From the IMG/VR virus record IMGVR_UViG_3300009163_000019: DNA of 64,000 nt. The stretch is one strand, 5' to 3'. The first letter of the stretch is position 1, and each line of letters begins with the position of its first letter. The notes under the pieces are model-generated. The model saw only the letters and a list, made by a program, of their open reading frames with translations, was not told the DNA's origin and made no database searches. Below, one piece after another: positions 1 to 40,536 of this stretch. Origin of the DNA: a virus. The position numbers were made by a program, and so were the translations under genes.

Positions 1-740
1 CAATCATTAGAATCATCCCAATGTTTTTTCTTTCCTTCTCTTGTATATTCATGCCATATAACAGGCCTATGTGGAGAAAATAAATTATATCCAAAAGTAA
101 AAGCTCTAGCAGCTAAAGAACTTTCTTCTCCATGAAAATATAATTCAGGATCATAAGGAACTTCTATTGGAAATGAACCTAATGTAAAAATAAAATGAGC
201 AGATATAAATCTTGCAGGAAAAGGTTCTTTATGATCTTGCCAATTTGGAATATGGTGAGGAGCTAAAAATATAGCTCCCGCAGGCATGAATCTATCTATA
301 TTTAAACCCCACACTTCATGAACTCTTGCATTCGGATCATTATTAGGAAAATATCCAGGTACATAAGCAGATAATAAAGGTTTTTTATATCCTTTACATT
401 GTAAATAGTGTATATAATCTTTTAAAGTTATATCCCAGTCTTGTAAAAATCTATGATGTGAATCTAATTGTAAATAATATTCCTGATCTGTATAATGTTT
501 TTGAATTTCTGCACGCATCCAACAAACACCTTTAGCTTCTTTATATGGAATATCTAAAATAATAAATCTAGAATCATTTTTATATTCATCTAGATTATCC
601 CAAGTATCTTCTTCTGAATGTTGCCAACCAATACAAATAGTAAAATTTTCTGGATTAACACAATTAGTTAATAAATCTTTTATAGTAGGAAGTAATTCTG
701 GATCTCTATAAGCTGCTATCGAAACAAAAATTCTTGACAT
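1..740 (-). CDS. GT60/Gnt1-like polypeptide alpha-GlcNAc transferase (Pfam GlcNAc-type GT-A fold); runs off the left edge
   Basis: Not in the ORF track. Manual translation from ATG at 740: MSRIFVSIAAYRDPELLPTIKDLL...AKGVCWMRAEIQ...YYLQLDSHHRF...FISAHFIF...VPYDPELYFHGEE...LAARAFTFGYNLFSP...IWHEY. The IFVSIAxYRD, DSH and FxGEE motifs match the Gnt1/GT60 family. Confidence 0.85.
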   Translation of the reverse strand, partial: MSRIFVSIAAYRDPELLPTIKDLLTNCVNPENFTICIGWQHSEEDTWDNLDEYKNDSRFIILDIPYKEAKGVCWMRAEIQKHYTDQEYYLQLDSHHRFLQDWDITLKDYIHYLQCKGYKKPLLSAYVPGYFPNNDPNARVHEVWGLNIDRFMPAGAIFLAPHHIPNWQDHKEPFPARFISAHFIFTLGSFPIEVPYDPELYFHGEESSLAARAFTFGYNLFSPHRPVIWHEYTREGKKKHWDDSND

Positions 741-743
741 AAC

Positions 744-780
744 GTAAATATACAAAATTTATTTGATATAAAAAAATTTA
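744..780 (-). promoter_or_regulatory. Class-I (host-RNAP-like, early/middle) promoter motif
   Basis: The minus strand reads TAAATTTTTTTATATCAA-N10-TATATTTAC. Near-identical copies with the same spacing lie at 22571-22606(-) and 32962-32997(+). Confidence 0.6.
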
Positions 781-782
781 TT

Positions 783-3700
783 TTAACATGGACCTGCGGC
801 TATATTTGCTGTAAATCCTCTAGTAGGTGTTGCAGAATTTACAGCAGCTGTACACGTACCTCCTGCTGTAGGACAAGTACTGTTTGCAGATATACCACAA
901 TTATAAGGACTTCTATCTGCATTATTCACTAATTGAACTAATGCTGAATCACCTGCATTTAATATGAATGAAGCTCTAAATCCGCAAGTAGAAACAGCAA
1001 ATGCGGCTCCTACAGGAGTATAATTAAATCCACCATCTGTTGAATATTCAAATTGAACAAAAGTTGCATTATCACTAGTTTTACCATATAAATTAACAGT
1101 AAATGGACCAGACGTAGACGGAGTTACACTAGGAGTTCTAGTTGGCGTTGGTGATGGTGAAGGACAAGCCGCTATACTTTGAATCAATCCACTACCTCCT
1201 GTTACTGTACCATAATTCGTTCCATTAGAATAGAATCCGTTATTTACTGTATTAGATCCTATTGAATCCATAGCATTTGTTTTATATAGAATCATACCAG
1301 CTTGAAATGCTGAGGTATACGAATAATATGTTGTTAAAGTTTCTGTTGCTGTACATGCAGTTAATCCACTTGATGCATTATAGTATAACGCATAAGAATA
1401 TACTACTCTACTAGGACTAGGAGTATTACTAGGTGTTATACTAGGAGTTATACTAGGTGTTACTGTTCTAGTAGGAGTTATACTAGGAGTTATACTAGGT
1501 GTTTTACTAGGTGTTACTGTTCTAGTAGGAGTTATACTAGGAGTTATACTAGGTGTTACTGTTCTAGTAGGAGTTATACTAGGAGTTACACTAGGTGTTG
1601 TTGATCTAGTAGTACTTACACTAGGAGTCGGTACCGCTGTACAATCTTGAACATTAGTTATATTTCCTGCTCCATCCATTTCAACAGCGTATGTGACACC
1701 ACTTCTAGTAATATAGTGCCATGTAGTTCCTAAATATTTATTAGCCGGATTTAAAGTATCAGTAGTATATATAATGCCTCCTATTGCAGGAACATTATAA
1801 GATGAATTCATCCATACAGGAAGGGACGCTCCAGCATTAGCGCAAGCTAATGTAGATGTTGCGTATGCTGTATTATTAATTAAATATGCAACAGGTGCCG
1901 CAGTAACACTAGGAGTTACGCTAGGAGTTATACTAGGTGTAATACTAGGAGTTCTACTAGGTGTTACGCTAGGAGTGCCGCTAACGCTAATTGACGGAGT
2001 AGGTGCAGGAGTACACGCTATATTTACTGTATATGTATCAGTTTTTGGATCAGCAGGATTATATGTTCCTGTTTCAACTAATAAGTAATATGTTATACTA
2101 TTATTATAAGTAAAATCTAAATATCCAGTAGGTGATCCGAATGTATTAGGCGTTGGAAGGGTTGGACAATCCCAATCAGGCGCGGAATAACAAAAATCAG
2201 ATCCTACCCAACTTGAAGAAACGGCAGTTGCTATGCCATTTTCATAGACTGTAAATCTATTAGGCCTTTCATAAGCTTGATAAAAAAGTGATATTGCACT
2301 TCCATTAGGAGTAGATGAAAAATCTAAACAATAAAATTCCTGATGGTAATCATTACCACTATATCCTCCTGATATAATATCTCCACAATCATTTGGACAT
2401 CCACCTGGACCATATGCCGATCTTGTAGGACTTACAGAAGGTGTATTAGTTGCTGTGGGAGTGGGGGGTGGTGTACAAATAACTCTTATATAATAAGCAT
2501 CTGTTATTCCAATATCCTCACAAATATCAACTATCACATAATATGTTCTTGAACTATTGTATGTAAATGTTGTATCTACAGGGTTTATGTCAATAGGAGT
2601 ACAAGGGGAACTAGGTGCTGATGATGGTGATCCTAACCATCCAGTTGTAAATATCGGTGATGGATTTACGCTATCATACAATGTAAATCTGTCAGGCCTA
2701 TCTCTTCCATCAAATTGTATATATATAGAAGAACCATTTGCCGTAGATGTTAAATCAAGATTTACTTGTTGTTGTGATGCATTATTAGGACTATAAGAAC
2801 CTATATAACTACCTCCACAACTTAATACTGGATTTGGTGTTGTTGAAGGTGTTATAGTAATACTAGGTGTTGTACTAACTGTTATACTAGGTGTTATGCT
2901 AGGAGTTCTACTAGGTGTAATAGTAATACTAGGAGTAATACTAGGAGTAATACTCGGTGTTATGCTAGGTGTTACGCTAGGAGTTCTACTAGGCGTTGCG
3001 GTTACACTAGGTGTTGCAGTTACTGTTGGTGTAACACTTATACTAGGTGTTGCTGTTATACTAGGTGTTGCTGTTACTGTTGGAGTAATAGTTATACTAG
3101 GTGTTATACTAACAGTAATACTAGGTGTTACGCTAGGTGTTATGCTAGGAGTTACACTAGGTGTTATTGATATGCTAGGTGTTACGCTAGGTGTTATGCT
3201 AGGTGATACACTAGGAGTTACACTAATACTGGTAGTAATGCTAGGAGTTATACTAGGAGTTACACTAGGAGTTATACTAATACTGGTAGTGATGCTAGGT
3301 GTTATGCTAGGTGTTACACTAGGTGTTATTGATGTAGTAGTAGTAATGCTAGGAGTTATACTAGGTGTAATACTTGGCGTAATGCTAGGTGTTATACTAG
3401 GGGTAACTGTTGCTGTTACACTAGTAGTAATACTAGGAGTTATACTAGGTGTTACGCTAACAGATATACTAGGAGTTATACTTGGAGTTACACTAGTAGT
3501 AATACTAGGAGTTACGCTAGGTGTTATGCTAGGAGTTACTGATATACTAGGTGTTACACTAGGAGTCATTGTTATAGTTACACCTGGTGTTGATGTTGGA
3601 CTAGCTGTCAAAGTTATAGTAGGAGTAATACTTATGCTAGGTGTTGCTGTTACTGTTGGCGTAATAGTTATACTAGGCGTTGCTGTTACACTAGGTGTTG

Positions 3701-4748
3701 CAGTTATACTAGGTGTAATACTAATACTAGGCGTTGCTGTTACACTAGGCGTTGCTGTTACACTAGGTGTAATACTTATGCTAGGTGTAGATGTTACAGT
3801 TGGTGTAATAGTTATACTAGGCGTTGCTGTTAAACTAGGTGTAATACTTATACTAGGTGTAGATGTTACAGTTGGCGTAATAGATATACTAGGCGTTGCT
3901 GTTACACTAGGCGTTGCTGTTACACTAGGTGTAATACTTATGCTAGGTGTTACACTAGGAGTCATTGTTATAGTTACACCTGGTGTTGATGTTGGGCTAG
4001 CTGTCAAAGTTATAGTAGGTGTAATACTTATGCTAGGTGTAATAGTTACTGTCGGGGTAATAGTTACACTAGGTGTTGCTGTTACAGTTGGTGTAATAGT
4101 TATACTAGGCGTTGCTGTTACACTAGGTGTAGGTGTTACCGTTGGTGTAATAGTTATACTAGGAGTCGCAGTCATACTAGGTGTTGTTGTTACTGTTGGA
4201 CTAATACTTACACTAGGTGTTGCGGTTACTGTTGGAGTAATACTTATACTAGGTGTTGCAGATACTGTTGGACTAATACTTACACTAGGTGTAGATGTTA
4301 CCGTTGGTGTAATAGTTATACTAGGTGTTGCTGTTACAGTTGGTGTTATGCTAGGAGTTACACTAGGTGTTATTGATATAGTAGTAGTAATACTAGGAGT
4401 TATACTAGGTGTAATACTAGGAGTTACGGTAACAGATATACTAGGAGTTATACTAACAGTTATACTAGGTGTAATACTCGGTGTTATAGAAACAGTAACA
4501 GATGGAGTAGGACTCGGAGCAACTATATATCTAATTACTTGATTATTACCTGAACAAAATTCTTGATTTATTAATTTTACATAAACACTATTATCATTTA
4601 TAGTTACTGTATAACCTGCTAATAAAGTATCAATTGAAACATTTGCCTGGATTAATACATCTGGACCACTATAACTTGTACCGTAATACAAATTAAACGG
4701 CCCTACCGAATCTCCATATGTACTTCCTAATGTTATTAATACTTGCAT
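783..4748 (-). CDS. Mucin-like Thr/Pro/Ser-rich putative virion protein with Cys-bracketed beta-rich domains
   Basis: About 560 aa of TPS[IV]/TPT[VI] repeats plus shorter TPS linkers that separate two pairs of repeated globular domains. No obvious signal peptide. Last gene of the baseplate operon. Confidence 0.7.
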   Translation of the reverse strand: MQVLITLGSTYGDSVGPFNLYYGTSYSGPDVLIQANVSIDTLLAGYTVTINDNSVYVKLINQEFCSGNNQVIRYIVAPSPTPSVTVSITPSITPSITVSITPSISVTVTPSITPSITPSITTTISITPSVTPSITPTVTATPSITITPTVTSTPSVSISPTVSATPSISITPTVTATPSVSISPTVTTTPSMTATPSITITPTVTPTPSVTATPSITITPTVTATPSVTITPTVTITPSISITPTITLTASPTSTPGVTITMTPSVTPSISITPSVTATPSVTATPSISITPTVTSTPSISITPSLTATPSITITPTVTSTPSISITPSVTATPSVTATPSISITPSITATPSVTATPSITITPTVTATPSISITPTITLTASPTSTPGVTITMTPSVTPSISVTPSITPSVTPSITTSVTPSITPSISVSVTPSITPSITTSVTATVTPSITPSITPSITPSITPSITTTTSITPSVTPSITPSITTSISITPSVTPSITPSITTSISVTPSVSPSITPSVTPSISITPSVTPSITPSVTPSITVSITPSITITPTVTATPSITATPSISVTPTVTATPSVTATPSRTPSVTPSITPSITPSITPSITITPSRTPSITPSITVSTTPSITITPSTTPNPVLSCGGSYIGSYSPNNASQQQVNLDLTSTANGSSIYIQFDGRDRPDRFTLYDSVNPSPIFTTGWLGSPSSAPSSPCTPIDINPVDTTFTYNSSRTYYVIVDICEDIGITDAYYIRVICTPPPTPTATNTPSVSPTRSAYGPGGCPNDCGDIISGGYSGNDYHQEFYCLDFSSTPNGSAISLFYQAYERPNRFTVYENGIATAVSSSWVGSDFCYSAPDWDCPTLPTPNTFGSPTGYLDFTYNNSITYYLLVETGTYNPADPKTDTYTVNIACTPAPTPSISVSGTPSVTPSRTPSITPSITPSVTPSVTAAPVAYLINNTAYATSTLACANAGASLPVWMNSSYNVPAIGGIIYTTDTLNPANKYLGTTWHYITRSGVTYAVEMDGAGNITNVQDCTAVPTPSVSTTRSTTPSVTPSITPTRTVTPSITPSITPTRTVTPSKTPSITPSITPTRTVTPSITPSITPSNTPSPSRVVYSYALYYNASSGLTACTATETLTTYYSYTSAFQAGMILYKTNAMDSIGSNTVNNGFYSNGTNYGTVTGGSGLIQSIAACPSPSPTPTRTPSVTPSTSGPFTVNLYGKTSDNATFVQFEYSTDGGFNYTPVGAAFAVSTCGFRASFILNAGDSALVQLVNNADRSPYNCGISANSTCPTAGGTCTAAVNSATPTRGFTANIAAGPC
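1405..1635 (-). repeat. Second TPS coding repeat (TPSITPSITPTRTV units)
   Basis: ctaggtgttactgttctagtaggagttatactaggagtta occurs 3 times. Confidence 0.9.
2836..4520 (-). repeat. Degenerate 12/18-bp coding tandem repeat (TPSI/TPSVTA), including a ~95-bp near-identical duplication at ~3551 and ~3947
   Basis: ctaggtgt/ctaggagt units are visible throughout. The peptide TPTITLTASPTSTPGVTITMTPSVTPSIS occurs twice. Confidence 0.95.
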
Positions 4749-4769
4749 TTAATTTAAATACTTTTTTTA

Positions 4770-6032
4770 TTATAGTATATTGCTACATTGATTATATCCT
4801 GTTATTCTATATACTTTTCCATTTACTGTAATATCTTGTGGACTAGATGTTATATTAGTTCCATTTAATGATAATACAGAAGGTTTCCAACTATTTGCCG
4901 TGTAAATTCCAGATCCATTATCGCATATAGGATTACTATCATAAAATTGAGGATATGCAGATCCTGAAGGTATAAATAATTCAGTACTTAATGAATTATA
5001 GAATACATCAGTTCTAAATATACAGGCTCCTAAATTAGTTCCATTACAACTTGTACCTGTGTATTTTATTATTTGTCCTGTTATAGTTAAATCGTCAGCT
5101 ATAGATCCAGAAGTTATTTCTCCTGTAACCTTGACATCACCAGATCCATTATTAAATCCATAAACTAATATTTTAGCTTGTATAATAGAATTAGAAGTTG
5201 ATGGTGTTACTGTTACAGTAGGAGTTTGTGTTACTGTTGGTGTTATAGTTATACTTGGCGTTATACTAGGGGTTATACTAACAGTTGTACTTGGTGTTTT
5301 ACTAACTGTCTTACTAGGTGTCTTACTAGGAGTTGTAGTTTTAGTTGGTGTTATACTAGGAGTAATACTCGGTGTTTTACTTGGTGTTACAGTAGGTGTT
5401 TGAGTAAGTCCTGGTGTTATAGAAATTGTTACACTTGGACTAGGAGACGCAGCTATTATTGTAGATAGTGTAAAATCAAAACTAGGATCTGCTACTAAAC
5501 ATACATAATCTTCATTTGTAAATGTAATAATTCCTTGTGCATATAAAACATTTCCTACATGAACATTATTATTAAATGTGTCTACTATATTACCATTACC
5601 ATCATCTATAATATTATAACTAGTTCCATCAGTAGAAGCAATATTAACTGTTCTTCTACTCATTTGTTCTCCAAACTGTCTTGATGGAATTGCAAAAAAT
5701 CCTATATTACTTCCAGTAGCAGAAGGAAAATATCGATTATCATCATCTAAACTACCCGATGCTCCTGTAGATTGTATAGAAGGATCCCAATAAGAAGCGG
5801 ATCCTATAATAGATCCAGTTATATAATTTTGATAATAAAGTTGCTTTATTACAGCATACTTATTTCTCTTAATAAAGGGTAACCCAGGAGAAGGTGAAAC
5901 TATATTCGTACCCCTATTAGTAGTTATTCCGTAGTCCAGTAAAGACTGACTCGCATAGGTAGCAGAATATTTTACTTTTATAGGAGCCGAAGATATATCC
6001 GATTTTTTTATGGTATTCTTCGATCTGCTCAT
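4770..6032 (-). CDS. Baseplate/tail-associated structural protein with a TPS-rich linker
   Basis: Has IIDDGNGNIVD..VGNVLYAQGII, a motif related to the neighbouring ORF, plus an ~85-aa TPS linker. Operon context. Confidence 0.55.
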   Translation of the reverse strand: MSRSKNTIKKSDISSAPIKVKYSATYASQSLLDYGITTNRGTNIVSPSPGLPFIKRNKYAVIKQLYYQNYITGSIIGSASYWDPSIQSTGASGSLDDDNRYFPSATGSNIGFFAIPSRQFGEQMSRRTVNIASTDGTSYNIIDDGNGNIVDTFNNNVHVGNVLYAQGIITFTNEDYVCLVADPSFDFTLSTIIAASPSPSVTISITPGLTQTPTVTPSKTPSITPSITPTKTTTPSKTPSKTVSKTPSTTVSITPSITPSITITPTVTQTPTVTVTPSTSNSIIQAKILVYGFNNGSGDVKVTGEITSGSIADDLTITGQIIKYTGTSCNGTNLGACIFRTDVFYNSLSTELFIPSGSAYPQFYDSNPICDNGSGIYTANSWKPSVLSLNGTNITSSPQDITVNGKVYRITGYNQCSNIL

Positions 6033-6038
6033 TTAATT

Positions 6039-7070
6039 TTACCAATCTAATTTTACTCTAATTAAAGCCTCTTTAGTAAAGTCTTTTGTCAAAGGTTTAG
6101 ATAATTTAGCTACTGCTACTAATTCATTATTATCATTATACATACCTACAGATGTTGGAAATGTCTGTGGACTATTAATAAAGTTTGAGTATATTAATGT
6201 ACCAGATCCTGATATAAATGAAGGATTGGTTGTATAATTATATTCTCCATTTTTAATTCTTACAAAAATATAATCAGAAGATATAGTTTCTTGAGAATTT
6301 AATTGGAAATAAGCGCCTCTATTAATTGCTTGGAAAATAAGTTCTTGATTTGCATTAGCCGCTTGAGCAGTTGCTGCAGTACTTAAAGTATATCCTAATC
6401 CACCTGCATTTGCCGGTAAGCTAATAGCCTTTGGATTTAAAACAATTAATCCAAGATCTGGGAGCATTAAACCATAACTACCTGAGGCAGTATATCCTTT
6501 AGCAGAAGCTCCTGATAATAGTGGACTATTTACAGCACTACCATTAGAACCTGAGATAATATCATAAACTCTTCCACCATCTACATAATTAACGATACTA
6601 ACATCATTAGAATTATCTGTAAGAGTTAAAACATTTGTTCCATTACTAAGTCTTAGATTAAAAGTACCAGGGAAAAGACTCTCTTTATACTTATTTCTAT
6701 CAACAGGAATTGCAATTAAATCAATTGAAGAGGTATTACCAGCTCCAAAATTTACAGCGCTTTCTGCATCTCCATAAATTAAATTTCTATACTGACCAAA
6801 AGTAATTCTTGTCGGAGTATTTGCTAAAACTAAATTATTAAGAGGAGCAGATCCTGATCCTAAAGCATGTCCGTAAGCAAATGAAAATTGTATAGAAGAA
6901 GTAGTTGCTGTTACTGGCGCATTATATACATCTAAGTAATTGCTTCCAGTATTTGCTGCTGATGCTGTATAAAATGAAGATAATATAGTAGCACCATTAC
7001 TCCAAGCCGGGGCTGTAACGGAATCAGATGATACTACAAAATCTGTTGGGTCTAATCTTGTAAATGACAT
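6039..7070 (-). CDS. Baseplate/tail-collar-like structural protein
   Basis: The C-terminal TSVGMYNDNNELVAVAKLSKP...IRVKLDW resembles the E/SVGL(F/Y)D..G.L(I/V)AVA motif of tail-collar/fibre-attachment domains. Confidence 0.55.
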   Translation of the reverse strand: MSFTRLDPTDFVVSSDSVTAPAWSNGATILSSFYTASAANTGSNYLDVYNAPVTATTSSIQFSFAYGHALGSGSAPLNNLVLANTPTRITFGQYRNLIYGDAESAVNFGAGNTSSIDLIAIPVDRNKYKESLFPGTFNLRLSNGTNVLTLTDNSNDVSIVNYVDGGRVYDIISGSNGSAVNSPLLSGASAKGYTASGSYGLMLPDLGLIVLNPKAISLPANAGGLGYTLSTAATAQAANANQELIFQAINRGAYFQLNSQETISSDYIFVRIKNGEYNYTTNPSFISGSGTLIYSNFINSPQTFPTSVGMYNDNNELVAVAKLSKPLTKDFTKEALIRVKLDW

Positions 7071-7081
7071 ATCTTATTTTA

Positions 7082-7741
7082 TTATTGATTTACTTTTGTA
7101 ATAGTTACAGGAATACTAATTCTAGCACCAGAATCACGACCAACAACAATCAGTGTTGTATATAATGAAGTATTAGCTCCAAATAATGTATTAACAGTAG
7201 TTGCACTTATGTTAATAGTTGTTCCAATTACTGTTTTACTTACATTCGTACCAATAGTTGCGGTAGAATTTAAACTAGTTGCTTCAGCAGTATTAATACC
7301 GACTCCATTAAATGAACTCATAGTTCTAACATCACCAATAGTAGCCACATATCCTGATTGCTCAAATGTAGATGTAGCTCCTAAATAGTTTAAAGTCTGT
7401 GGAGTTATAGAAAGAGAAGCACCTTGGCGAATAACAATTGCGGTATATCCAAGATCTAGTACAGGTATTTTAGCTGTTCCTCTAGGAAGCGTAATTAACT
7501 TATACTTCATTATTTCTGTATCATTAGGATATGCTTGAAGTATTGGCATGGCTTCTATAGCCTCACCATAAAAAGCAGATCCAGAAGGATGATTTGGATT
7601 ATATAAAGTGTAATCTATCTCGTCATCAGCTAAAGAGAATTGAGTAATTCTAAATGATCCATCATTACGAGCTAAAAGCTCTCTACCTTTCTTAGTTAGG
7701 ATGGCATCAACAATTACTGAGGAATTTTGTAAATATGACAT
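7082..7741 (-). CDS. Baseplate/tail-collar-like structural protein
   Basis: The N-terminal AILTKKGRELLA...FRITQFSLADDEIDY resembles the start of tail-collar domains. Confidence 0.5.
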   Translation of the reverse strand: MSYLQNSSVIVDAILTKKGRELLARNDGSFRITQFSLADDEIDYTLYNPNHPSGSAFYGEAIEAMPILQAYPNDTEIMKYKLITLPRGTAKIPVLDLGYTAIVIRQGASLSITPQTLNYLGATSTFEQSGYVATIGDVRTMSSFNGVGINTAEATSLNSTATIGTNVSKTVIGTTINISATTVNTLFGANTSLYTTLIVVGRDSGARISIPVTITKVNQ

Positions 7742-7781
7742 AAAAAATGGGCTTTTAAATAAATATATCTAATTTTGTTTT

Positions 7782-10700
7782 TTATTGTATTAAATTCTGC
7801 TGTTTTAAAGCTTTTACTGTATTACCAGCATTTGCTTGAACAACTTCATCTATATATTGAGGAAATAATAAACCATTTTCAACTAAAGTAGAATCTTTTG
7901 GATTATATCTAAGCATAACATTAGTTTCGTCAGGTAGATGTTTCCATACAACATACCTACACGCACGGAATGGTGAACCAGTAAAGGCATCTATAGGAAC
8001 TCCGGAACCAGAGGATAGAAGTGCTCCATCTATAGACCTGTCTACTTCAGCTATTAATCTAGATCCAGTAACGCCAGATCCTGTAAATATAATATTTTTT
8101 ATACTATATTCAAATCTTTCATCCCAACCAAGAGAGGATGTATTATATAGAGATATTCTATCTCCAACATTTAAAGTAAATGGAGTTATCACCCTTTCTA
8201 ATGGAGATGTACTCCAGTAATCATCAGAAGTTGAATTATATACCAATCCATAATCATAATAATATGCTATAGCCGAATCAAATACTATTTGTTTAGATTG
8301 AGATAAATAATATAAACAGTTTTGAGATGCACTAACATTAGTAGTTAAAATAGTAGTAGTAAAAGTTGTACCACCTCCGCCTCCTCCTCGTTGCTCAATG
8401 CCATCAATATATTTTGTACATGTCCGACTAAATCCAGAGTTTGACCATCTAGCATTTGGATCAGTTTCTAGACTACATCCACTACCTAATCCAGAGGGTG
8501 TTAATACACTTGTATCACTAGCAATTGTTGTTCCGTCCGATGTTTGCCCAGTATTAATACTTAATACTCTTTCTGTTAATGTTCCGCATGTACCATTTGA
8601 ACTCATAGCAGCCATAATATACACATAAACATCAAAAGTCACAGCTTGAGGAGTAGACGCTCCATTAGGATGGTATGAGGCACTTACGCCGGAAAAATAA
8701 ATAGATTCAGAACCATTGTCTTGTTCGCAAACATAGTATCCTACTCTCCAGTTACTAGATTTTAATTCAGGAGAATTAGGATCTATACCACCGCCGCTAC
8801 TACCTTGTATTATTATTGGTATTGGAGTATCTAAACTAAATGATTGTGTTGTAGTAGATCTAGAACCACTTACTTGATGTAGTATTGGTAAATATCTAAA
8901 TCCGCCTTCATATATTGTGGTAGTAGGATTATTTACTAGTTGCTGAGAAAATGGATTTCTTTCATCATATTCAAATAGGGAGATATTTGAAGTCTCTCCT
9001 GATTTATATATATTCTGAACAGAAAATATGTTATTATTTGCTTTAGTAAGATCTAATACATTTTGATTATTATCAATAACATATTTTATTTGTGCATTAG
9101 ATCTTTTCGGTAAAAACATAGATGATGAATAGATATCAACTAAATAAGCGTATTGATATTTTATCTTATCTATTGCAGCTGTTTTACCATAAGAATCATC
9201 TCCTACTGTATAAGTTGTATAAGTTGCACTCACAGTTTGTGATCCTTTATATCTAGGAAGTATAGATCTTTCTAAAAAGTAATTATAATCCTGAACATAA
9301 GCATATGGGCTCATAGGATTTGTATAATCCGCATAATTATTTATCTGTGAATTATTTAGAGATCCTGTTATTATATTAAAATTAACAGGCTTTGATTGAT
9401 CTGCCGTGTAGTCTAGATCTAATAAATAAAGAGACCTTACAGAACTAGTAACATTTTGATATAGAGCTCCTCTAGAAACAGTAACAACACCTGATGATGT
9501 TGCAGGAAGATTTGAATTTTCTGATTGATCAAAAGCATCTCCAGTAGTAACTACTATTTCTGATCCTGCTAATTCTCCTGTATATTGTTCATAGTTTTGA
9601 GAACTAGTATAAGCAACATTACCTAAAGGTGTAGTAATTAAGCCTGTCCAATAAGTAGATCCAGATAGCGCGCCTCCTGTAGATCCTTCTACATAAAGCA
9701 TATCTATAGATTGTGAATAGTTCATATTAAGACTCATGCTAGGCTCATATCTTGCATACTTATTCCTTTCTAGCATATGAGATTTTACAATTATACCTGT
9801 AGATAGATTTGCTCTAGCAGGTACAAAGTCTTTAATCATTTTGAATAAAGAGTTATTGTAAAATTTAATTAATCTTATATATTCCCAAACACTACTAGGT
9901 TGTGTATAGTTTGCAAAATAGGCATTACTTGCACTAACTAGTGGCGCATATGATGATGATTGTTGATATCCTGGGCTTCCTATTAATTGATTAATATCAA
10001 AAAATCCTTGAGATGCAGTTATATTTGTATTAATAGTATCTGCTGGTGAAAATCCTACTTCAATATTTGTACTATTAACTCTATGATCTTTATCATAAAA
10101 TTGTAAAGTAGCATAAGGTGAAAGTAATGATGAGGATAAAGCTAAGCTGCCAGATACATTCCCATTACTTCCAGTAGAAATATTTATTTTGTAATCCGTT
10201 GTATCTAAATCAAATGCGCCATCAACAGAATCAATTGGATTACCACCAAATTCTCTAACGGTTAAAATTTCTTCAGGAATACCAAAAGTACTGATTAGGG
10301 CTTTTATACCTCTTTGTGTACCTTTTGTTTTAAGTAAATACGGTAAGTTATGATATAATCTTTTATATAATTCATCTTGAATAGTAGCCGCAGGAAGTGT
10401 AGTTAAACTTGAAGTAACATAATTGGTTATAAGTTCAGATCCAGTTGGAGGCAATAATCCACCATCAGTATTAATACCAAACAACGTATAGTACAGGTTA
10501 TCAGATACATTTGAATTAGTATATAATTGCATTCCAAAACCCTTTAGAGCGTCAGAAACAATGTCTAATGATATACCAGTATCAGGATTATTAGTTGCAT
10601 TATATCGATTAGAAAGGTCTTTATAATATATCCAAATATTATCAAAATGCTGTCCTATCATATCTAGGAAAGTAATATATGGAGTATTACTAGAATCATC

Positions 10701-11987
10701 TAATAAATACTGCGGGATACTATTATGCAGTAAGTCTTTATTTGTGCTATCATAATAAGAAGCCGAGAATAGTAAAGATTGAGTTGTTGCTGTTGGAACA
10801 ATAGACTCACTTCCTAAAAAATTAGCGGCTTCTGATGAAGTTACTGAATATAATTGATATGGCTGAGTTGTTGTTGATTTAGGCCATGTCCAACTAGAAG
10901 AATTAAAATATAAAAAATATTCGTAGGTATCAAATTTTTGTATAATATTATTTATAGAAGACTCTATATATCCTATAGAAGACGATACTATTAGTTGATT
11001 TCCTGACCCACCAGTTATTGATTGTTGTTGTATTATTTGATTATTATAAGATTCTATTAATCCTAATTTATAAACAAAATTATTTACCCTTTCTGTAGCA
11101 CTTGAAAAATGAATAAAATTGCTAAAATTACTATAATCAACATTTATTTCGACAGACTTATCTTGATAATAACTAAGTAGTTTTTGATAAGAAGAACTTA
11201 TATTACTAGATAATAAATTATTATAATTATAATATGGCGTAGTTTGTCCATTTTTATTATTTATAACAACATTAAAATTTGGACCTCTTAAAGAATTTTC
11301 ATTTTGTGTAGATTCTGCTTGAACTTGAATATTTACATCAAAGCTAACAGATTCAGCTACTTTATCTACTATCCATAATTGAGTTTTTAAATCATAATCT
11401 GGAGATAATGGTGCATATAATTTAATTAAAAGATAACCGCCATCTTCGTCTTCTGTGTATGCTACATTGTCTGCAATTATTATTTCATTATTTCCAAAAT
11501 TAAGATAAAATACAGGATAATAATTTTTAGTTCCAATATATGCTTGATACTGATTAAATCCATTTTTAATATCGGAATTACTTAATACTTGAGAAGCTAA
11601 TTTTAATTCTGTTCTTGAAGTTGATATTTCTTTTATCCAAAAGAATCTGCCAAATGCAGAGTTAAATAATCTTTTATGGAAATGATACTGTATATTTAAA
11701 TTTCCTCTATTAAACCCTCTATTTTTTAAATCCGTTTCTGGATCTAATGTAAGACTGGGATAGGTATTATTTTTAGGATTAGCTGTTAAATATGGATAAT
11801 AATCTGAGGCATCATAATCAAAGTCTAATAATTGTTTATTTTCATCATATATATATAACTCTAAATAATCATTTGTTGCTCCAAATTGTGTATTAATATA
11901 ATCTGAAGTAACTAATTGTCTATCTAATGTAGATAAATTCTGTCTCTCTGTTCCTTGCCCTGCATATGTTATATTAACTAATTCCAT
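7782..11987 (-). CDS. Large baseplate wedge protein (T4 gp7 / P2 gpI-like core)
   Basis: Motifs LYHNLPYLLKTKGTQRGIKALISTFG and IKDFVPAR. Lies downstream of the gp25- and gp6-like genes. Confidence 0.65.
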   Translation of the reverse strand: MELVNITYAGQGTERQNLSTLDRQLVTSDYINTQFGATNDYLELYIYDENKQLLDFDYDASDYYPYLTANPKNNTYPSLTLDPETDLKNRGFNRGNLNIQYHFHKRLFNSAFGRFFWIKEISTSRTELKLASQVLSNSDIKNGFNQYQAYIGTKNYYPVFYLNFGNNEIIIADNVAYTEDEDGGYLLIKLYAPLSPDYDLKTQLWIVDKVAESVSFDVNIQVQAESTQNENSLRGPNFNVVINNKNGQTTPYYNYNNLLSSNISSSYQKLLSYYQDKSVEINVDYSNFSNFIHFSSATERVNNFVYKLGLIESYNNQIIQQQSITGGSGNQLIVSSSIGYIESSINNIIQKFDTYEYFLYFNSSSWTWPKSTTTQPYQLYSVTSSEAANFLGSESIVPTATTQSLLFSASYYDSTNKDLLHNSIPQYLLDDSSNTPYITFLDMIGQHFDNIWIYYKDLSNRYNATNNPDTGISLDIVSDALKGFGMQLYTNSNVSDNLYYTLFGINTDGGLLPPTGSELITNYVTSSLTTLPAATIQDELYKRLYHNLPYLLKTKGTQRGIKALISTFGIPEEILTVREFGGNPIDSVDGAFDLDTTDYKINISTGSNGNVSGSLALSSSLLSPYATLQFYDKDHRVNSTNIEVGFSPADTINTNITASQGFFDINQLIGSPGYQQSSSYAPLVSASNAYFANYTQPSSVWEYIRLIKFYNNSLFKMIKDFVPARANLSTGIIVKSHMLERNKYARYEPSMSLNMNYSQSIDMLYVEGSTGGALSGSTYWTGLITTPLGNVAYTSSQNYEQYTGELAGSEIVVTTGDAFDQSENSNLPATSSGVVTVSRGALYQNVTSSVRSLYLLDLDYTADQSKPVNFNIITGSLNNSQINNYADYTNPMSPYAYVQDYNYFLERSILPRYKGSQTVSATYTTYTVGDDSYGKTAAIDKIKYQYAYLVDIYSSSMFLPKRSNAQIKYVIDNNQNVLDLTKANNNIFSVQNIYKSGETSNISLFEYDERNPFSQQLVNNPTTTIYEGGFRYLPILHQVSGSRSTTTQSFSLDTPIPIIIQGSSGGGIDPNSPELKSSNWRVGYYVCEQDNGSESIYFSGVSASYHPNGASTPQAVTFDVYVYIMAAMSSNGTCGTLTERVLSINTGQTSDGTTIASDTSVLTPSGLGSGCSLETDPNARWSNSGFSRTCTKYIDGIEQRGGGGGGTTFTTTILTTNVSASQNCLYYLSQSKQIVFDSAIAYYYDYGLVYNSTSDDYWSTSPLERVITPFTLNVGDRISLYNTSSLGWDERFEYSIKNIIFTGSGVTGSRLIAEVDRSIDGALLSSGSGVPIDAFTGSPFRACRYVVWKHLPDETNVMLRYNPKDSTLVENGLLFPQYIDEVVQANAGNTVKALKQQNLIQ

Positions 11988-12325
11988 TACATTAATTGAT
12001 TAATATTTGTGAATGTCTGATTAAGATCTAATAATTGTTGGCGTAGTGAATTAATTTCTTCTATTAAAGCCTGTTTTTCTGCATCTATTACAGATCCTCC
12101 TATATATTGTTGACTTCTTTCTACTAAATATATATGAGAATTTATGTCTCCTTCAACAGGTATATTAAAAAATAATTCATCATAATATCTAAAAAAATCA
12201 TCTACTGATATAGCTGCTTGAGTGTCTACTACTACAGGAGTTATTAATTCTGTAAAACGAGTATCAATAGCTTTTGAATAAGTATTAAGACCATAAATTT
12301 GTTTTATTAAATCTACATTTGCCAT
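11987..12325 (-). CDS. Hypothetical baseplate-region protein with a C-terminal coiled coil
   Basis: ORF track; TAATG overlaps on both sides. Confidence 0.5.
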   Translation of the reverse strand: MANVDLIKQIYGLNTYSKAIDTRFTELITPVVVDTQAAISVDDFFRYYDELFFNIPVEGDINSHIYLVERSQQYIGGSVIDAEKQALIEEINSLRQQLLDLNQTFTNINQLM

Positions 12326-13446
12326 TATCTAACTACTTTAAAAATTAAATCATTATCTATATCATAAGATTCACCATCAGACATTACTGTTCTTATAAGT
12401 ACTTTATAATATCTTTCTGGTTCAAGGCCTGACATATATAAGTAAAAATAACTATTTGTTCCATCGCAACTTATTTTAGTAAACGATGTATCAAAATCTA
12501 TAACCATATCATTGTTTTTAGCATCTTGAATAGCCCAATAAGAAGTTTCAGGAAGTGCTTTATTTGTTGTATAAAAAGAAGATGTTGTAAATGTTCTAGG
12601 AGGGTATTTATCCCTCGCATTAATTATCATTTTATATTTACCAGTTCCATATTTGTAATTAGATATATTATTACCTAATGTTATTACATTATCAGAATTA
12701 TCAATAACTGATAAAGTACCAGTATTATAAGAACTATCGTCCCACTTCATTTCAATAGTAGGTGGATAAATAGTATGTGTATCTACTGAAAAGAAACTTA
12801 ACGCTATGTAACTATTTGGATTTTGTTCTATTGAATTTGGGTGTTTTATAATAAATCCATAATTAGGAAAATTATTAAACCAAGCATCTACTATAGGTTG
12901 AACATTTACATTTATATCTTTATTATCTTTATAACTAAAAGATTGTGTGTAAACTGTGCCTTCCCAAGAACCTCCACCAGGAGTTAAATAATAAGAACCT
13001 GAAACCCCAAAAGAGTTATATCCCCAGTTATTACTTGCAGATGTAAAAGATCCAGTACTATACCAACAACAACCATTTCTAGTTTCTGGTACATCCGCGG
13101 CTTTTCCCGTTCCCATAGTCCAAGAATCATGAACTTGGGCAATTTGTAAACTATAACTAGTATTTAAGTTTTCAGCATTTGCTAAATATAATCTTAAATT
13201 TGCTTGCCAAGAGCCAGTTCTAAATGATTTAAGTGTTTGTAAATCATTATTATCAAATAATATTAATGATCTTCTTAAGTCATCACTTAATAAAGGTTCT
13301 GTTGGAACAGATTCTACAAAATAATTTAAAGGTGTAGATGAATTTTTTACCGATACCTCAAGTATTTCATCTAATCCAGCGTTTAAAGCAGGATGACTAG
13401 AATATATAGAAGCGTCAGCTGAGGCAAATATTTTATATACGGCCAT
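12325..13446 (-). CDS. Structural protein with a DNRLRE-like beta-sandwich domain
   Basis: Pattern ASADASIYS..P.LNAG...RRSLILFD...ANLRLY...W..G.G...NYGFIIK...FFS...P.IEM.W. Confidence 0.55.
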   Translation of the reverse strand: MAVYKIFASADASIYSSHPALNAGLDEILEVSVKNSSTPLNYFVESVPTEPLLSDDLRRSLILFDNNDLQTLKSFRTGSWQANLRLYLANAENLNTSYSLQIAQVHDSWTMGTGKAADVPETRNGCCWYSTGSFTSASNNWGYNSFGVSGSYYLTPGGGSWEGTVYTQSFSYKDNKDINVNVQPIVDAWFNNFPNYGFIIKHPNSIEQNPNSYIALSFFSVDTHTIYPPTIEMKWDDSSYNTGTLSVIDNSDNVITLGNNISNYKYGTGKYKMIINARDKYPPRTFTTSSFYTTNKALPETSYWAIQDAKNNDMVIDFDTSFTKISCDGTNSYFYLYMSGLEPERYYKVLIRTVMSDGESYDIDNDLIFKVVR

Positions 13447-13456
13447 TTTTTTATTT

Positions 13457-15313
13457 TTATAATGTTACTACTCTACCTTGAATATCAGTATCAGGATATT
13501 TAACCTCAAATATAGAAGGATCTAATGACGGATATATTACGTTATTTAAAGTACCTGCAGAAATATCATAAGCATACTTAGAATATCCGCTAGCTTCTCC
13601 TGTTTTATTTATTATTTTAACATCTTTTACAGTTTGAACACCTTCTACTTGATCTAATGTTGAATATAGATCACCTAATATAATAGGCTGATTTATTTGC
13701 CAATTATCCGTATTAAAGAAGTTTTGCACTTGAATTAAACATCTAGCAATAACATCCTGACTTGTATAGTTGGGTCTTATAATGATATCAAAATTACAAC
13801 CTATGTTTATAATATATCCAGGTTTCATATTGATAGCATCAGTCATCATTCTATAATCAAAAAGATACGTTTGTATATTTTTTAAAAGAGCAGGAGATGG
13901 ATCTGCTAATTGTCCTGCATTGTTTAATCCTAGAACATATAGACTAATTAGCATTTGATCTTTCTGACTAACGTCAGCATCCATGTATTTATTATATGTT
14001 GCGTCATCCTTTGTTACATAAGCCTTAGATACCTTTCCATATTGTCCAGGCATACTAAGAGTCCTAGCCAAATAATCTTGTTGAGTAACAGCTCTTAATT
14101 GAGTAGGAAATTCATTTGCAATATTAAATCTTAATTCTTGAACTGAATCACCATCTCCGCCCCCAACTGCAGGACTTGGATTATTTACTGCTATAGTATT
14201 TTGATACGTAGTATTTCCTGATACTGTATATGATGCTACTTGATTTAATTGATTTGATAAAGCATTTGCACTAGCTCCACCGCCTACTAAATAATTAAAA
14301 GTAATAGTTGTATTTTTAGGAGCTATACCATATGTTTGTGTAGTTACAAAATTTGTTGGATCAAATGAACTGGATAATTGACTAAGACCGCCGGCTGTTA
14401 ATCCTACACTGATGCTACTAGGATTCGGAATTACTGCTGTATCTGCCACTGAATTTATACCAGCACCAAATTCTATTTCTAAAGATCCGTCAGTTCTAAA
14501 TCTTGAAACAAAACGTCTAGGAACCTGTAGTTTTTGAATTATATAAGGTACTTGATTTGAATATTGATATAAACTAGGATAGTTTGTAGCCGTATTTTGA
14601 ACTGGTGTTAATATATAATCTTGTGCTAAATAAGGAACTTCATACCATGTATTACCATCTGAATCTACAGCATTTAATATAGATATTATTGAGCTATCTT
14701 GAATAGTTATTGTAGAAAATCTTTTAGGAGAAGAAAATGTAGCCGGATAAGTTTTTACTTGTCCTGATAATGCTTGTGCTGTTTTCTTTAACAAGTAAGA
14801 TATTGCGTTACCAGTGCCATCTACATTATAAACTTCTATAGTTGTAGGATCATAAGATGATGATGTGCTAAAATCTACTTTTTGTGGAATAAAAAATAAA
14901 ACAGAACTATTAACATTTGATTTTATTTGCATTCCTTGATTTATAGTCATAGCATAAGAAAAATCAGGAACCTCATCTATACCAGAAGTAAGTGACGGTA
15001 CTTGTTGATAAACATCAATATCTACTATAGCAGCAGAAGTTACTTTAGGTCTATATCCCATCATATATGCTAGGGAATATAAATTATTTTTTTGTTTAGC
15101 ATATTGTAAAAAAGTTTCTTGAAGTTGATTATCTAAATAAAAAGACATAACGTCTCCTACATAAGAAGCCATTTCAATAAACATACTACCAGGACTAGCT
15201 TGTGTAAAGTCATTATATACTGTCGGATAGTATGCTTTTGCATATTCTATCAAATCAGATTTGAAAGAACTAAAGTCTTTATTTAAATACTTAATATCTA
15301 TTTCGTTAGCCAT
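13457..15313 (-). CDS. Baseplate wedge subunit (T4 gp6 / baseplate J-like)
   Basis: DFSSFKSDLIEYAK, EMASYVGDVMSFYLD, LAYMMGYRP, GGGDGDS..ELR, QLRAVTQQDY. Confidence 0.9.
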   Translation of the reverse strand: MANEIDIKYLNKDFSSFKSDLIEYAKAYYPTVYNDFTQASPGSMFIEMASYVGDVMSFYLDNQLQETFLQYAKQKNNLYSLAYMMGYRPKVTSAAIVDIDVYQQVPSLTSGIDEVPDFSYAMTINQGMQIKSNVNSSVLFFIPQKVDFSTSSSYDPTTIEVYNVDGTGNAISYLLKKTAQALSGQVKTYPATFSSPKRFSTITIQDSSIISILNAVDSDGNTWYEVPYLAQDYILTPVQNTATNYPSLYQYSNQVPYIIQKLQVPRRFVSRFRTDGSLEIEFGAGINSVADTAVIPNPSSISVGLTAGGLSQLSSSFDPTNFVTTQTYGIAPKNTTITFNYLVGGGASANALSNQLNQVASYTVSGNTTYQNTIAVNNPSPAVGGGDGDSVQELRFNIANEFPTQLRAVTQQDYLARTLSMPGQYGKVSKAYVTKDDATYNKYMDADVSQKDQMLISLYVLGLNNAGQLADPSPALLKNIQTYLFDYRMMTDAINMKPGYIINIGCNFDIIIRPNYTSQDVIARCLIQVQNFFNTDNWQINQPIILGDLYSTLDQVEGVQTVKDVKIINKTGEASGYSKYAYDISAGTLNNVIYPSLDPSIFEVKYPDTDIQGRVVTL

Positions 15314-15316
15314 TTT

Positions 15317-15730
15317 TTACATATTTTGTATAGTCAATACAACTGAATCATTTTCATTTGATCTTAATAATCGATAACTAAATTTTATATTTATTGAATT
15401 ATAATCAGGTTCACCTATGATATCTAATTGAACTACTTTAATTTGTGGAAAGTAATTTTCCATTTGTGTCATTATAGATTGCCTTAAGTCTTCAAATGTA
15501 TACTGATCTATCTGTTCAAACAATCTAGATCTCAATCCGGCACCAAATGTAGGATTAAATGGCCTTTCTCTAGGATCAGTAAGTAAATAATTTATTATAT
15601 TATATTTAGTCTGTTCCTTAGTTGTGTATATAGATTGAAATACAGCATCTGACGAGAATGGTATTTTAACACCTATTCCTGTTGATGGTTTAAGATCTAA
15701 AGGCGATATTTTTTTTAATCCGTATGCCAT
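15317..15730 (-). CDS. Baseplate wedge / sheath initiator (T4 gp25-like)
   Basis: NIINYLLTDPRERPFNPTFGAGLRSRLFE. Confidence 0.9.
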   Translation of the reverse strand: MAYGLKKISPLDLKPSTGIGVKIPFSSDAVFQSIYTTKEQTKYNIINYLLTDPRERPFNPTFGAGLRSRLFEQIDQYTFEDLRQSIMTQMENYFPQIKVVQLDIIGEPDYNSINIKFSYRLLRSNENDSVVLTIQNM

Positions 15731-37866: not shown

Positions 37867-38718
37867 ATGGCTATAAAACATTCAAAATATCGCAATACCG
37901 GTATTTTATTCGAATTACTAGTTAGACAGACTACATCTGATCTAATTAATAATCAAGATTCAAAGGCTGTTAAAATATTAAAAAAATATTTCACTAATAC
38001 AGAATTAGGAAAGGAATATAGCCTATATGGAACATTTTCATCCAGCCCAAAATTAACAGAAGCTAAATCAGAGATTCTTATTTCTACTATTATAGAACAA
38101 TATAATAAGTTAGATCACGATAAGATAAATAAGTTAAAGTATAATTTAATTAAAGAAATTAAAGCAAATTACGATTTAGATAATTTTTTTAAAGCCAAAA
38201 TAGAAAATTATAAGCCTTTTGCTTCAATTTATACTATATTTGAATCTCAAAATAGTGAATCTGTTGATACAAAACAACTAATTCTAAATAAAATTAATCT
38301 TTTAGAACATCTATCAGTAAAATCTTTAGATGATACTAAAGCTCCAAAGTCACTGATCCAGGAGTTTATGAAAGAAGATAAAGAAATTAGACTAATGGCT
38401 TATAAAATACTTGTAGAAAAATTCAATAACAAGTATCAAAACATGTCTGAAAAGCAAAAAGATGTATTAAAAGAATATATTACAAACATTTCTGATACAA
38501 AAAATTTAAGAGTTTATCTAAATGGACAATTAAAGACCATAAAATCAGAATTAGTATCACTAAAAGAATCTACACAAGATCAAGTTGTAAAAATTAAATT
38601 AGAAGAAGTACTTAAGTTTGTTACTCCTATTAAAGAGAATCAAACTATTAAAGACGAGATAATTACTGGTATTCTTCAGTATCTAGATTTAATTGATGAG
38701 CTAAAAAGATCTGCATAA
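37867..38718 (+). CDS. Conserved head-region helical protein
   Basis: IKHSKYRNTGILFELL; lies between portal and protease. Confidence 0.5.
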   Translation: MAIKHSKYRNTGILFELLVRQTTSDLINNQDSKAVKILKKYFTNTELGKEYSLYGTFSSSPKLTEAKSEILISTIIEQYNKLDHDKINKLKYNLIKEIKANYDLDNFFKAKIENYKPFASIYTIFESQNSESVDTKQLILNKINLLEHLSVKSLDDTKAPKSLIQEFMKEDKEIRLMAYKILVEKFNNKYQNMSEKQKDVLKEYITNISDTKNLRVYLNGQLKTIKSELVSLKESTQDQVVKIKLEEVLKFVTPIKENQTIKDEIITGILQYLDLIDELKRSA

Positions 38719-40384: not shown

Positions 40385-40410
40385 AAAATTTAAATAAAAA
40401 ATAAATAGCC

Positions 40411-40536
40411 ATGGCAAAAGCTGCAAGTAGTTTAATTAAAATTAGTTTTGGTAAAAAGAAAAAAGGAGTTGCAAAAAAATCATTTAATAAACATGATAGA
40501 AAAGAAAGAAACTATCGTGGACAAAGAAAAGCCTAA
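40411..40536 (+). CDS. Small very basic protein (41 aa), YRGQ-type C-terminus
   Basis: Manual translation MAKAASSLIKISFGKKKKGVAKKSFNKHDRKERNYRGQRKA*. Confidence 0.65.
   Translation: MAKAASSLIKISFGKKKKGVAKKSFNKHDRKERNYRGQRKA

Follow-up and report, generated by a model that had tools for sequence, protein, structure and literature searches.

We analysed a 64,000-nucleotide (64-kb) stretch of viral DNA, IMG/VR record IMGVR_UViG_3300009163_000019, which is referred to here as the window. Its source is the low-GC (guanine plus cytosine, about 31%) genome of an uncultured T4-like myovirus, recognizable as such by genes for a large terminase, a portal, a major head protein, and gp6-like and gp25-like wedge proteins. 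No match for positions 1-8000 was found among cultured phages by megablast. The locus considered here lies at the left end of the window, where two genes for proteins with Thr/Pro/Ser-rich (TPS) repeats are followed, on the same strand, by a gene for a glycosyltransferase (GT) of the GT60 type. Its features are listed below (aa, amino acids; bp, base pairs).

3-740, minus strand: GT60-type glycosyltransferase paralog A, N-terminal 246 of 418 residues, identified by PF11397; the gene leaves the window at its left end
741-782, minus strand: intergenic gap of 42 bp between the repeat-protein gene and the GT gene (stop at 783, ATG at 740)
783-4748, minus strand: 1321-aa 'beads on a string' protein, P0002, identified by translation and composition
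2799-4532, minus strand: main Thr/Pro/Ser/Ile/Val array of P0002 (residues 73-650), the proposed O-glycosylation acceptor, identified by composition and tandem repeats
4770-6032, minus strand: 420-aa putative fibre protein, P0003, with an N-terminal anchor domain (1 to ~190), a TPS linker and a distal domain
5169-5486, minus strand: TPS linker of P0003, residues 183-288 (106 residues), of the same repeat kind as in P0002

The open reading frame (ORF) of the GT gene, at 3-755 on the minus strand, is open past the left edge of the window, with an ATG at 740. The initial annotation had assigned to this place a GT60 enzyme, encoded 42 bp downstream of the 1321-aa protein and on the same strand, and had singled out the motifs IFVSIAAYRD, LQLDSHHRF (DSH at 456-464) and FHGEE. 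The spacing is borne out by the stop and start positions, all three motifs are present in the ORF, and the family assignment was upheld by a profile search. That is, the window fragment matches PF11397 ('GlcNAc'), which we take to be the Pfam counterpart of CAZy GT60, with an E-value of 4.5e-58 (197.8 bits, against a cut-off of 21); it also matches phrog_24687 ('glycosyltransferase') at 2e-102. The fragment is identical in 245/246 residues to the full-length, 418-aa protein P0007 of a JGI metagenome contig, L156. Full-length orthologs, and a second paralog (B) described below, score 168-215 bits against PF11397, over profile positions 1-45 and ~97-351 of 352. The sequence DSH corresponds to a DxH metal motif, of which D93 and H95 are invariant in 61 homologs that include both paralogs. 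DxH in place of DxD is a hallmark of GT27 and GT60, sister families with polypeptide Ser/Thr O-glycosylation in common (Taujale et al., PMC7185993). Two variant forms of the enzyme were seen in other viral records. In one viral contig (the record behind L194, G049; 38136-40457) both PF11397 domains are fused in a single 897-aa ORF, and in a 315-kb phage (the record behind L233, G062; 172587-173570) a 577-aa form spans the whole Pfam profile in one stretch, with 267 bits.

Searched by sequence, the PDB contains no relative of the full-length GT. An AlphaFold model of the enzyme was built on a 61-sequence alignment, and is confident (predicted local distance difference test, pLDDT, 93.6). In a Foldseek comparison of the first 324 residues of this model, the ~50 top matches are all polypeptide N-acetylgalactosamine (GalNAc) transferases (ppGalNAc-transferases). 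The same enzymes occupy ranks 1-29 in VIA-align (Z 19.7-23.2, ~275 residues, 3.3 A), and generic GT2-type folds come next, at Z 17.4 or less. The comparison runs via the GT27 ppGalNAc-transferases, as there is no solved GT60 structure to compare. According to the model, then, the catalytic domain of the enzyme is closest to polypeptide O-glycosyltransferases and not to a generic GT2. PF11397, the DxH motif and the model together set it apart from the DNA- or lipopolysaccharide (LPS)-modifying GT2 enzymes that the initial annotation had named as the other possible affiliation. When the C-terminal 103 residues were modelled by themselves (pLDDT 88), the result was a beta-sandwich with about seven strands, whose best matches are FN3 domains at Z 6.7, i.e., at background level. 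A ricin-type (beta-trefoil) lectin was considered for this C-terminus and is not supported; only background FN3/Ig-like matches and a non-significant match to the Wzt carbohydrate-binding domain (Foldseek E 0.14) were obtained. A type II membrane anchor was not found in the GT, which begins at its first beta strand and reaches a maximum 19-residue hydropathy of 1.13.

Phage GTs commonly modify DNA, and in the Xanthomonas jumbo phages Xoo-sp13 and XacN1, to which we return below, the GT60 gene lies a few genes from those for DNA polymerase and RNase H. The enzymes might then glycosylate phage DNA, and the hypermodified base so produced would protect it from restriction. The DNA-modifying GT-A enzymes known from phages are similar to JGT and TarP and carry the motifs R...DDD...EDY/F (bioRxiv 10.1101/2023.12.21.572611). 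The window enzyme, unlike the JGT/TarP type, has DxH and matches ppGalNAc-transferases; in addition, its gene stands in the fibre module in this lineage, and the association with protein repeats described below would be left unexplained. We therefore consider a DNA substrate barely credible.

The larger of the two repeat proteins, P0002, consists of a 77-aa N-terminal domain, a TP[ST][IV] array of ~580 residues, and Cys-containing globular domains split by three shorter TPS linkers (at about 905-957, 1030-1122 and 1183-1228). The long TPS[IV] array had been put at ~560 residues in the initial annotation; we find that residues 73-650 are dominated by T, P and S, with at least 60% T+P+S per 30-residue window. 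Across the whole protein there are 103 TP[ST][IVM] tetrapeptides. The composition of residues 78-640 is T 31%, S 21%, P 18%, I 15% and V 9%; with T+S+P at 70%, this region has the long Pro/Thr/Ser tandem repeats that characterize mucin-like (PTS) domains. At the DNA level the array is likewise tandem, with a base period of 12 nt and higher orders of 36, 54, 108 and 216 nt. A 548-aa ORF on the opposite strand (2896-4542, plus strand) is an antisense artefact of the array, not a gene. Among the ORFs of the window, repeats of the TPS kind are confined to P0002 and P0003, the latter carrying the second TPS linker that had been proposed for ORF 4770-6032. Database comparisons were of little help with either protein. 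P0002 has no Pfam match, and its only PHROG match, phrog_15511 (function unknown), is probably driven by the repeats; the 420-aa protein matches nothing in Pfam or PHROGs; and the globular domains of P0002, compared with ESM Atlas features, retrieved only unnamed viral clusters, with scores of 0.85 or less.

The relationships of these proteins to the virion can be examined through the order of the genes and through related loci. The genes upstream of P0003 on the same strand are as follows.

6039-7070, minus strand: 343-aa conserved baseplate-module protein, used below as an independent marker for sampling relatives
7082-15730, minus strand: upstream baseplate module, with 219-, 1401-, 112- and 373-aa proteins, then the gp6-like and gp25-like proteins
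13457-15313, minus strand: gp6-like baseplate wedge protein (phrog_219 and phrog_10646, 'baseplate wedge subunit')
15317-15730, minus strand: gp25-like baseplate wedge protein (phrog_261 and phrog_43, 'baseplate wedge subunit')

From ~15.7 kb downward the minus strand thus reads baseplate genes, 1401-aa, 219-aa, 343-aa, 420-aa and 1321-aa proteins, and GT, so that the GT genes come straight after baseplate and fibre genes. The 343-aa marker protein has no match in Pfam or PHROG. The N-terminal domain of P0003 opens the gene at the same position in 61 related loci, with C-terminal parts that range from ~170 to 1524 aa. This domain is 53% identical to the N-terminus of a 380-aa protein from a relative without repeats and without the GT; the anchor is kept, together with a short match at residues 357-374 of the 380-aa protein (near its C-terminus), and the middle and distal parts are replaced. 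In two further loci (L008 and L011), the anchor and a long repeat protein form a direct fusion, whose gene stops immediately ahead of the GT. Baseplate-attached fibres are recognized by an N-terminal anchor that is conserved, a distal part that varies and a place directly after the baseplate genes, and we assign P0003 to this class on that basis. As for P0002, relatives keep its N-terminal 77 aa, at 41-48%, in their second repeat protein, but not its distal domains. The earlier proposal that the stalk is attached to the baseplate therefore stands only for the 420-aa protein, by virtue of its conserved N-terminal domain; for the 1321-aa protein it is a prediction.

The 42-bp gap between the P0002 and GT genes contains no terminator-like site, and promoter-like sites across the region are no commoner than in shuffled sequences. 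Co-transcription of P0002 with the GT gene is therefore likely. What follows the GT gene can be read from L156, which stands for a near-identical strain. Its order is the tail of the repeat protein, GT60-A (418 aa), GT60-B (422 aa; PF11397 at 6e-50), a 329-aa protein of no assigned family, a carbamoyltransferase, and a last gene in which an FkbM-type methyltransferase is fused to an HtrL/YibB-like and a GT2 domain. The additional GTs and sugar genes that the initial annotation had expected to the left of the window are thus seen in this strain. We collected 64 IMG/VR loci with relatives of the enzyme, and most of them carry the tandem pair. The tailoring genes behind the pair are variable, and include methyltransferases, GT2, HtrL-like proteins, a DegT aminotransferase, an RmlD-like reductase and a carbamoyltransferase. 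In a tree of the GT60 sequences, the second-of-tandem copies form one clade, and the first copies cluster with single-copy enzymes, among them those from Xanthomonas jumbo phages and from giant-virus metagenome-assembled genomes (MAGs). The split between first and second copies implies that the duplication is old and that both copies were kept. In L079 (11081-20930), and also in L080 and L081, the paralogs stand apart, each behind one or more repeat-protein genes of its own (repeat, repeat, GT60-A, repeat, (repeat), GT60-B); from this arrangement, each paralog may serve particular fibres.

The composition of the cassette could be taken to mean something else, since polysaccharide clusters typically contain HtrL/YibB, GT2, FkbM-type methyltransferase, carbamoyltransferase, DegT and RmlD-like genes. 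That is, the repeats could be bare flexible linkers, which are common, unglycosylated, in large-phage fibres, and the cassette could serve another glycan (a host envelope polysaccharide or LPS) or another phage protein, its adjacency to the repeat gene being that of co-regulated late genes. This is the main live rival to glycosylation of the repeats, and we judge it unlikely. Two properties of the enzyme argue against it, namely its fold, which is nearest to the peptide-glycosylating GT27 enzymes, and its solubility, in that it has no membrane anchor whereas envelope-glycan GTs are usually membrane-acting. The remaining evidence that bears on it comes from the distribution of repeats and GT60 genes among other genomes.

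Relatives of the window phage were sampled independently of both elements. A search with the gene for the 343-aa marker identified 313 relatives in IMG/VR, of which 80 were fetched; 28 marker-picked records of at least 30 kb were then checked for PF11397 and for a DNA pattern, i.e., codon-degenerate DNA encoding TP[ST][IV]TP[ST]. Both were present in three records and neither in 24 (including two 100%-complete genomes); one had the pattern only and none had the GT only. The single discordant record, with the pattern but without the GT, is a fragment, 22% complete. The association between repeats and GT is significant by Fisher's test (p = 0.0012 for the 28 records, uncorrected for relatedness). 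In two relatives that are 79% identical in the marker (L067 and L068), neither repeats nor cassette are found at that place; instead, the anchor protein is followed directly by the same 100-aa and 150-aa GIY-YIG genes with which the cassette of L002 ends. In L079-L081, repeats and GT60 are both present, though marker identity is only 64-68%. Presence and absence of repeats and cassette are thus interleaved with similarity; they have been gained and lost together between close relatives. This joint gain and loss, and the interleaving of GT genes with repeat genes in L079-L081, argue against bare linkers beside an unrelated cassette.

A SegE-like GIY-YIG homing endonuclease gene lies just past the end of the cassette (L002:18731-19180) and at the corresponding place in a cassette-less relative (L067:12522-12971). 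This gene marks the boundary of the insertion or deletion, and may have a bearing on the movement of the block.

Relatives without GT60 have other linkers. In L069 (11046-18103) and L072 (2397-3512) the same fibre anchor is found with poly-Thr linkers of the TTTSTTT type, with no TP[ST][IV] and no GT60, and in L069 GT2 and methyltransferase genes stand downstream in the place of GT60. In L084 (11047-15549), the same anchor occurs, again without GT60; its S/T/P-rich region lies outside the inspected stretch, and a weak GT2 match downstream (E 2e-4) is below the Pfam cut-off. The pairing of poly-Thr linkers with GT2 in relatives that lack GT60 suggests, from gene content, that each linker flavour is matched to its own enzymes.

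The association was also assessed beyond this lineage, in both directions. Starting from the GT, five of five GT-picked genomes in which the GT neighbourhood is devoid of repeats have the pattern elsewhere, with 2-48 matches against 0-1 for the reversed control. Starting from the repeats, an IMG/VR scan with a 3.5-unit pattern gave 29 contigs, i.e., every matching contig of at least 60 kb. PF11397 is encoded in 15/29 of these pattern-picked contigs, and in five of the six that are at least 90% complete; genome sizes run from 60 to 315 kb. It was found in none of 34 control contigs of 20 kb or more, which had been selected with a random 14-mer, including 0/11 complete ones (15/29 vs 0/34, p = 6e-7; the controls are smaller on average and not size-matched). 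This enrichment, too, argues against the bare-linker explanation.

Among cultured phages, a GT60-like enzyme is encoded in only 4 of 50,697 records, all of them Xanthomonas or Stenotrophomonas jumbo phages. Two of these, Xoo-sp13 and XacN1, have 47 and 50 pattern matches, against 1 and 0 in the control. Their GT60-like genes are 43-47% identical, and a carbamoyltransferase gene is next to them, as in the cassette of the window phage. The pattern matches fall in large proteins, one of which is annotated 'mucin-16-like' and others of which adjoin the tail sheath stabiliser; some of the giant repeat proteins have evidently been mis-annotated, via their linkers, as 'xylanase' or 'phosphodiesterase'. 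Like the window phage, then, these two phages combine a GT60-like gene by a carbamoyltransferase with many large TP[ST][IV]-repeat proteins, some near tail genes; they differ from it in their Proteobacteria hosts, in having a single GT60 copy, and in that the repeat genes are dispersed, not adjacent. That the same motif accompanies GT60 at such a distance is a further point against bare linkers. Purified XacN1 virions contain glycoprotein bands that are Schiff-stained (positive by periodic acid-Schiff, PAS), and two GTs, ORF334 and ORF328, have been proposed as their makers (PMC5852040). ORF334 is GT60-like and ORF328 is a GT9. The XacN1 paper linked the glycoproteins neither to the GT60 family nor to repeat proteins. 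Taken together, these data show that the co-occurrence of GT60 and TPS repeats across phage genomes, which the initial annotation had proposed as a check, is strong within the lineage, in unrelated large phages, and in two cultured jumbo phages.

Full-length relatives of the enzyme that include the C-terminal sandwich are also found in bacteria of many phyla (343 matches). Of the bacterial loci kept, 32/80 have a T/P-rich ORF at most 8 kb from the GT60-like gene, and in ~9 of them it lies directly upstream on the same strand; this count is uncontrolled. The neighbours are varied, with FN3, BNR, lectin-like, glycoside-hydrolase-like and PqqD-domain proteins among them. In two Gemmatimonadaceae loci (L417:7143-7937 and L425:7212-7952), a protein with a PqqD domain of the type that recognizes ribosomally synthesized and post-translationally modified peptides (RiPPs) and a T/P-rich tail is encoded directly upstream of a full-length GT60 homolog; the pair may represent a glycosylated peptide or protein system. 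The evidence leaves us evenly divided over a broader proposal, namely that TP[ST][IV] is the sequon of a widespread cytoplasmic mucin-type system, shared by large phages and relatives in many bacterial phyla, in which an initiating and a follow-up GT60 paralog coat fibre stalks densely with sugar, strain-variable tailoring genes diversify the glycan, and sister phages pair poly-Thr with GT2.

For the module of the window itself we are more confident. What the data show is the family of the enzyme, its fold, the synteny and the co-occurrence, and from these we think it likely that the module is a phage-encoded system for cytoplasmic protein O-glycosylation that acts on baseplate fibres of the same phage. 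Membrane segments are absent from both enzymes and fibre proteins, and the two would therefore meet in the cytoplasm, where virion proteins fold. Late in infection, two fibre proteins would be made, one of 420 aa with a baseplate-anchor domain and one of 1321 aa, in both of which extended TP[ST][IV] stalks would hold the distal domains. Two soluble GT60-type GT-A enzymes, encoded directly downstream, with paralog B just beyond the window edge, would then use a UDP-activated N-acetylhexosamine (UDP-HexNAc) of the host, most likely UDP-N-acetylglucosamine (UDP-GlcNAc), and a metal bound by DxH, to place the first sugar onto Thr/Ser hydroxyls of the repeats. The chemistry would be that of protist GT60 enzymes, or of animal GT27 enzymes on mucins. 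The carbamoyltransferase and the fusion of FkbM-type methyltransferase, HtrL/YibB-like and GT2 domains would extend and cap the glycan. The predicted outcome is a virion stalk that is stiffened, protease-resistant and covered with glycans. What we infer here is which residues accept the sugar, which sugar it is, how the paralogs share the work and what the phage gains. By analogy with the family, the sugar is probably GlcNAc; Thr rather than Ser would be the acceptor residue, the stalk could be more than 100 nm long, and it may function as a shield or a spacer.

The acceptor could also be another residue of the same repeats. PF11397 is named after the Skp1 hydroxyproline GlcNAc-transferase, which is also soluble and cytoplasmic, and Pro is present in every repeat unit; the TP motifs might thus be modified by a prolyl 4-hydroxylase (P4H) and glycosylated on hydroxyproline, as for Dictyostelium Gnt1. 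Of three complete GT60-positive genomes, only one encodes a P4H-type 2-oxoglutarate (2OG)-Fe(II) oxygenase (PF13640), and none of the cassettes examined does, a result that applies to this oxygenase family, others not having been searched, and that leaves room for a host enzyme. We consider hydroxyproline a quite improbable acceptor.

A number of observations weigh against glycosylation of the repeats, and some of them favour bare linkers. The first group concerns the proteins. GT60 activity in this phage, or in any phage, is a prediction from sequence. At the C-terminus of the GT lies a generic beta-sandwich, for which no relationship to lectins could be detected. Ile and Val together make up 24% of the repeats, which is atypical for mucin domains, and the array might form ordered beta structure instead of a brush. 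The presumed place of P0002 in the virion comes from the position of its gene and its conserved N-terminal domain. The second group concerns the distribution. With contigs matched for size (at least 60 kb), the enrichment of PF11397 is reduced to 15/29 vs 0/6 (p = 0.027), and the co-occurrence statistics as a whole ignore relatedness, besides the smaller average size of the random controls. Two nearly complete genomes, G035 (complete) and G044 (88% complete), have the pattern without PF11397, and in many phages with GT60, tens of kilobases separate the GT from the repeat genes, i.e., the GT pair is not beside a repeat gene; both are as bare linkers would have it. As for XacN1, the glycoprotein bands were not identified by the paper, and the phage also encodes a GT9 (PMC5852040).

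Other observations concern the remainder of the window and the host. At 59771-61072 on the plus strand, a gene that causes a local GC peak (0.42) encodes a 433-aa glycine-rich protein with two similar halves, GGGGG runs and a recurring 'SCWGGGG ... GLVILxY' frame; next comes a gene for a 723-aa Ser/Thr/Gly-rich protein (61100-63271, plus strand). The two are probably further structural or fibre proteins. An SprB-repeat protein is encoded in the fibre module of a related phage (L096:13432-14847), and the best bacterial matches of the GT include Bacteroidota, namely Cytophagaceae, Saprospiraceae (L403, a MAG) and Arcticibacterium. The SprB-repeat protein and these matches together hint at a freshwater Bacteroidota host.

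The proposed system can be compared with three known ones. With the CAZy GT60 enzymes of protists (Dictyostelium Gnt1 and Gnt2, and the Trypanosoma cruzi polypeptide alpha-GlcNAc-transferases), the phage enzyme shares PF11397, DxH and the GT-A fold, and, as proposed here, Thr/Pro-rich mucin-like tracts as acceptors; with Gnt1, which acts on a hydroxyproline of Skp1, it shares solubility and predicted action in the cytoplasm. It differs from the protist enzymes in comprising two anciently diverged tandem paralogs, in its extra C-terminal beta-sandwich of ~100 residues, in that the genes precede bacterial-type glycan-tailoring genes, and in that its activity is predicted; the Golgi membrane anchor of Gnt2 and the T. 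cruzi enzymes is absent from it. The GT27 ppGalNAc-transferases of animals and apicomplexans, which start mucin-type O-glycosylation, are the closest solved structures (Z 20-23 over ~275 residues) and have DxH in common with it, and in both systems several isoenzymes are found with dense Thr/Ser/Pro repeats. Identity to GT27 is, however, only 12-15%. In place of the ricin-type lectin domain, the phage enzyme has an FN3/Ig-like sandwich (at background similarity); it is predicted to be cytoplasmic, not Golgi-resident; and its sugar is, by family, probably GlcNAc and not GalNAc.

To our knowledge, virion glycosylation by phage-encoded enzymes has been shown experimentally only in a few cases, notably in mycobacteriophages. 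There, as summarized in a later paper, phage GTs act in the host cytoplasm and glycosylate structural proteins of the same phage (Freeman et al. 2023, Cell Host Microbe, cited in PMC12619734). According to that summary, the hosts are Actinobacteria and the glycans are carried on C-terminal extensions of capsid and tail-tube subunits; the window phage, so far as this account allows a comparison, differs in its GT family, in having internal repeat stalks hundreds of residues long, and in bearing them on T4-like baseplate fibres. Full-text searches of the papers available to us found no description linking GT60 or PF11397, or mucin-like virion proteins with GTs, to phage repeat proteins.

If our proposal is correct, virion glycosylation extends to T4-like and jumbo phages of Gram-negative hosts, and involves substrates hundreds of residues long. 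Elsewhere, the GT60 family is known as the initiator of mucin-type glycans in protists; the phage module would represent a route to dense mucin-type O-glycosylation in the bacterial cytoplasm, useful for glyco-engineering. The 'mucin-like' and mis-annotated 'xylanase' giant proteins of jumbo phages would be explained, and because XacN1 and Xoo-sp13 are cultured, the hypothesis is directly testable. Strain-specific stalk glycans that affect stability, adsorption or recognition would be predicted, and, if the broader proposal holds, virion glycan coats would be a common, evolvable layer of the interaction between phage and host, or phage and environment.

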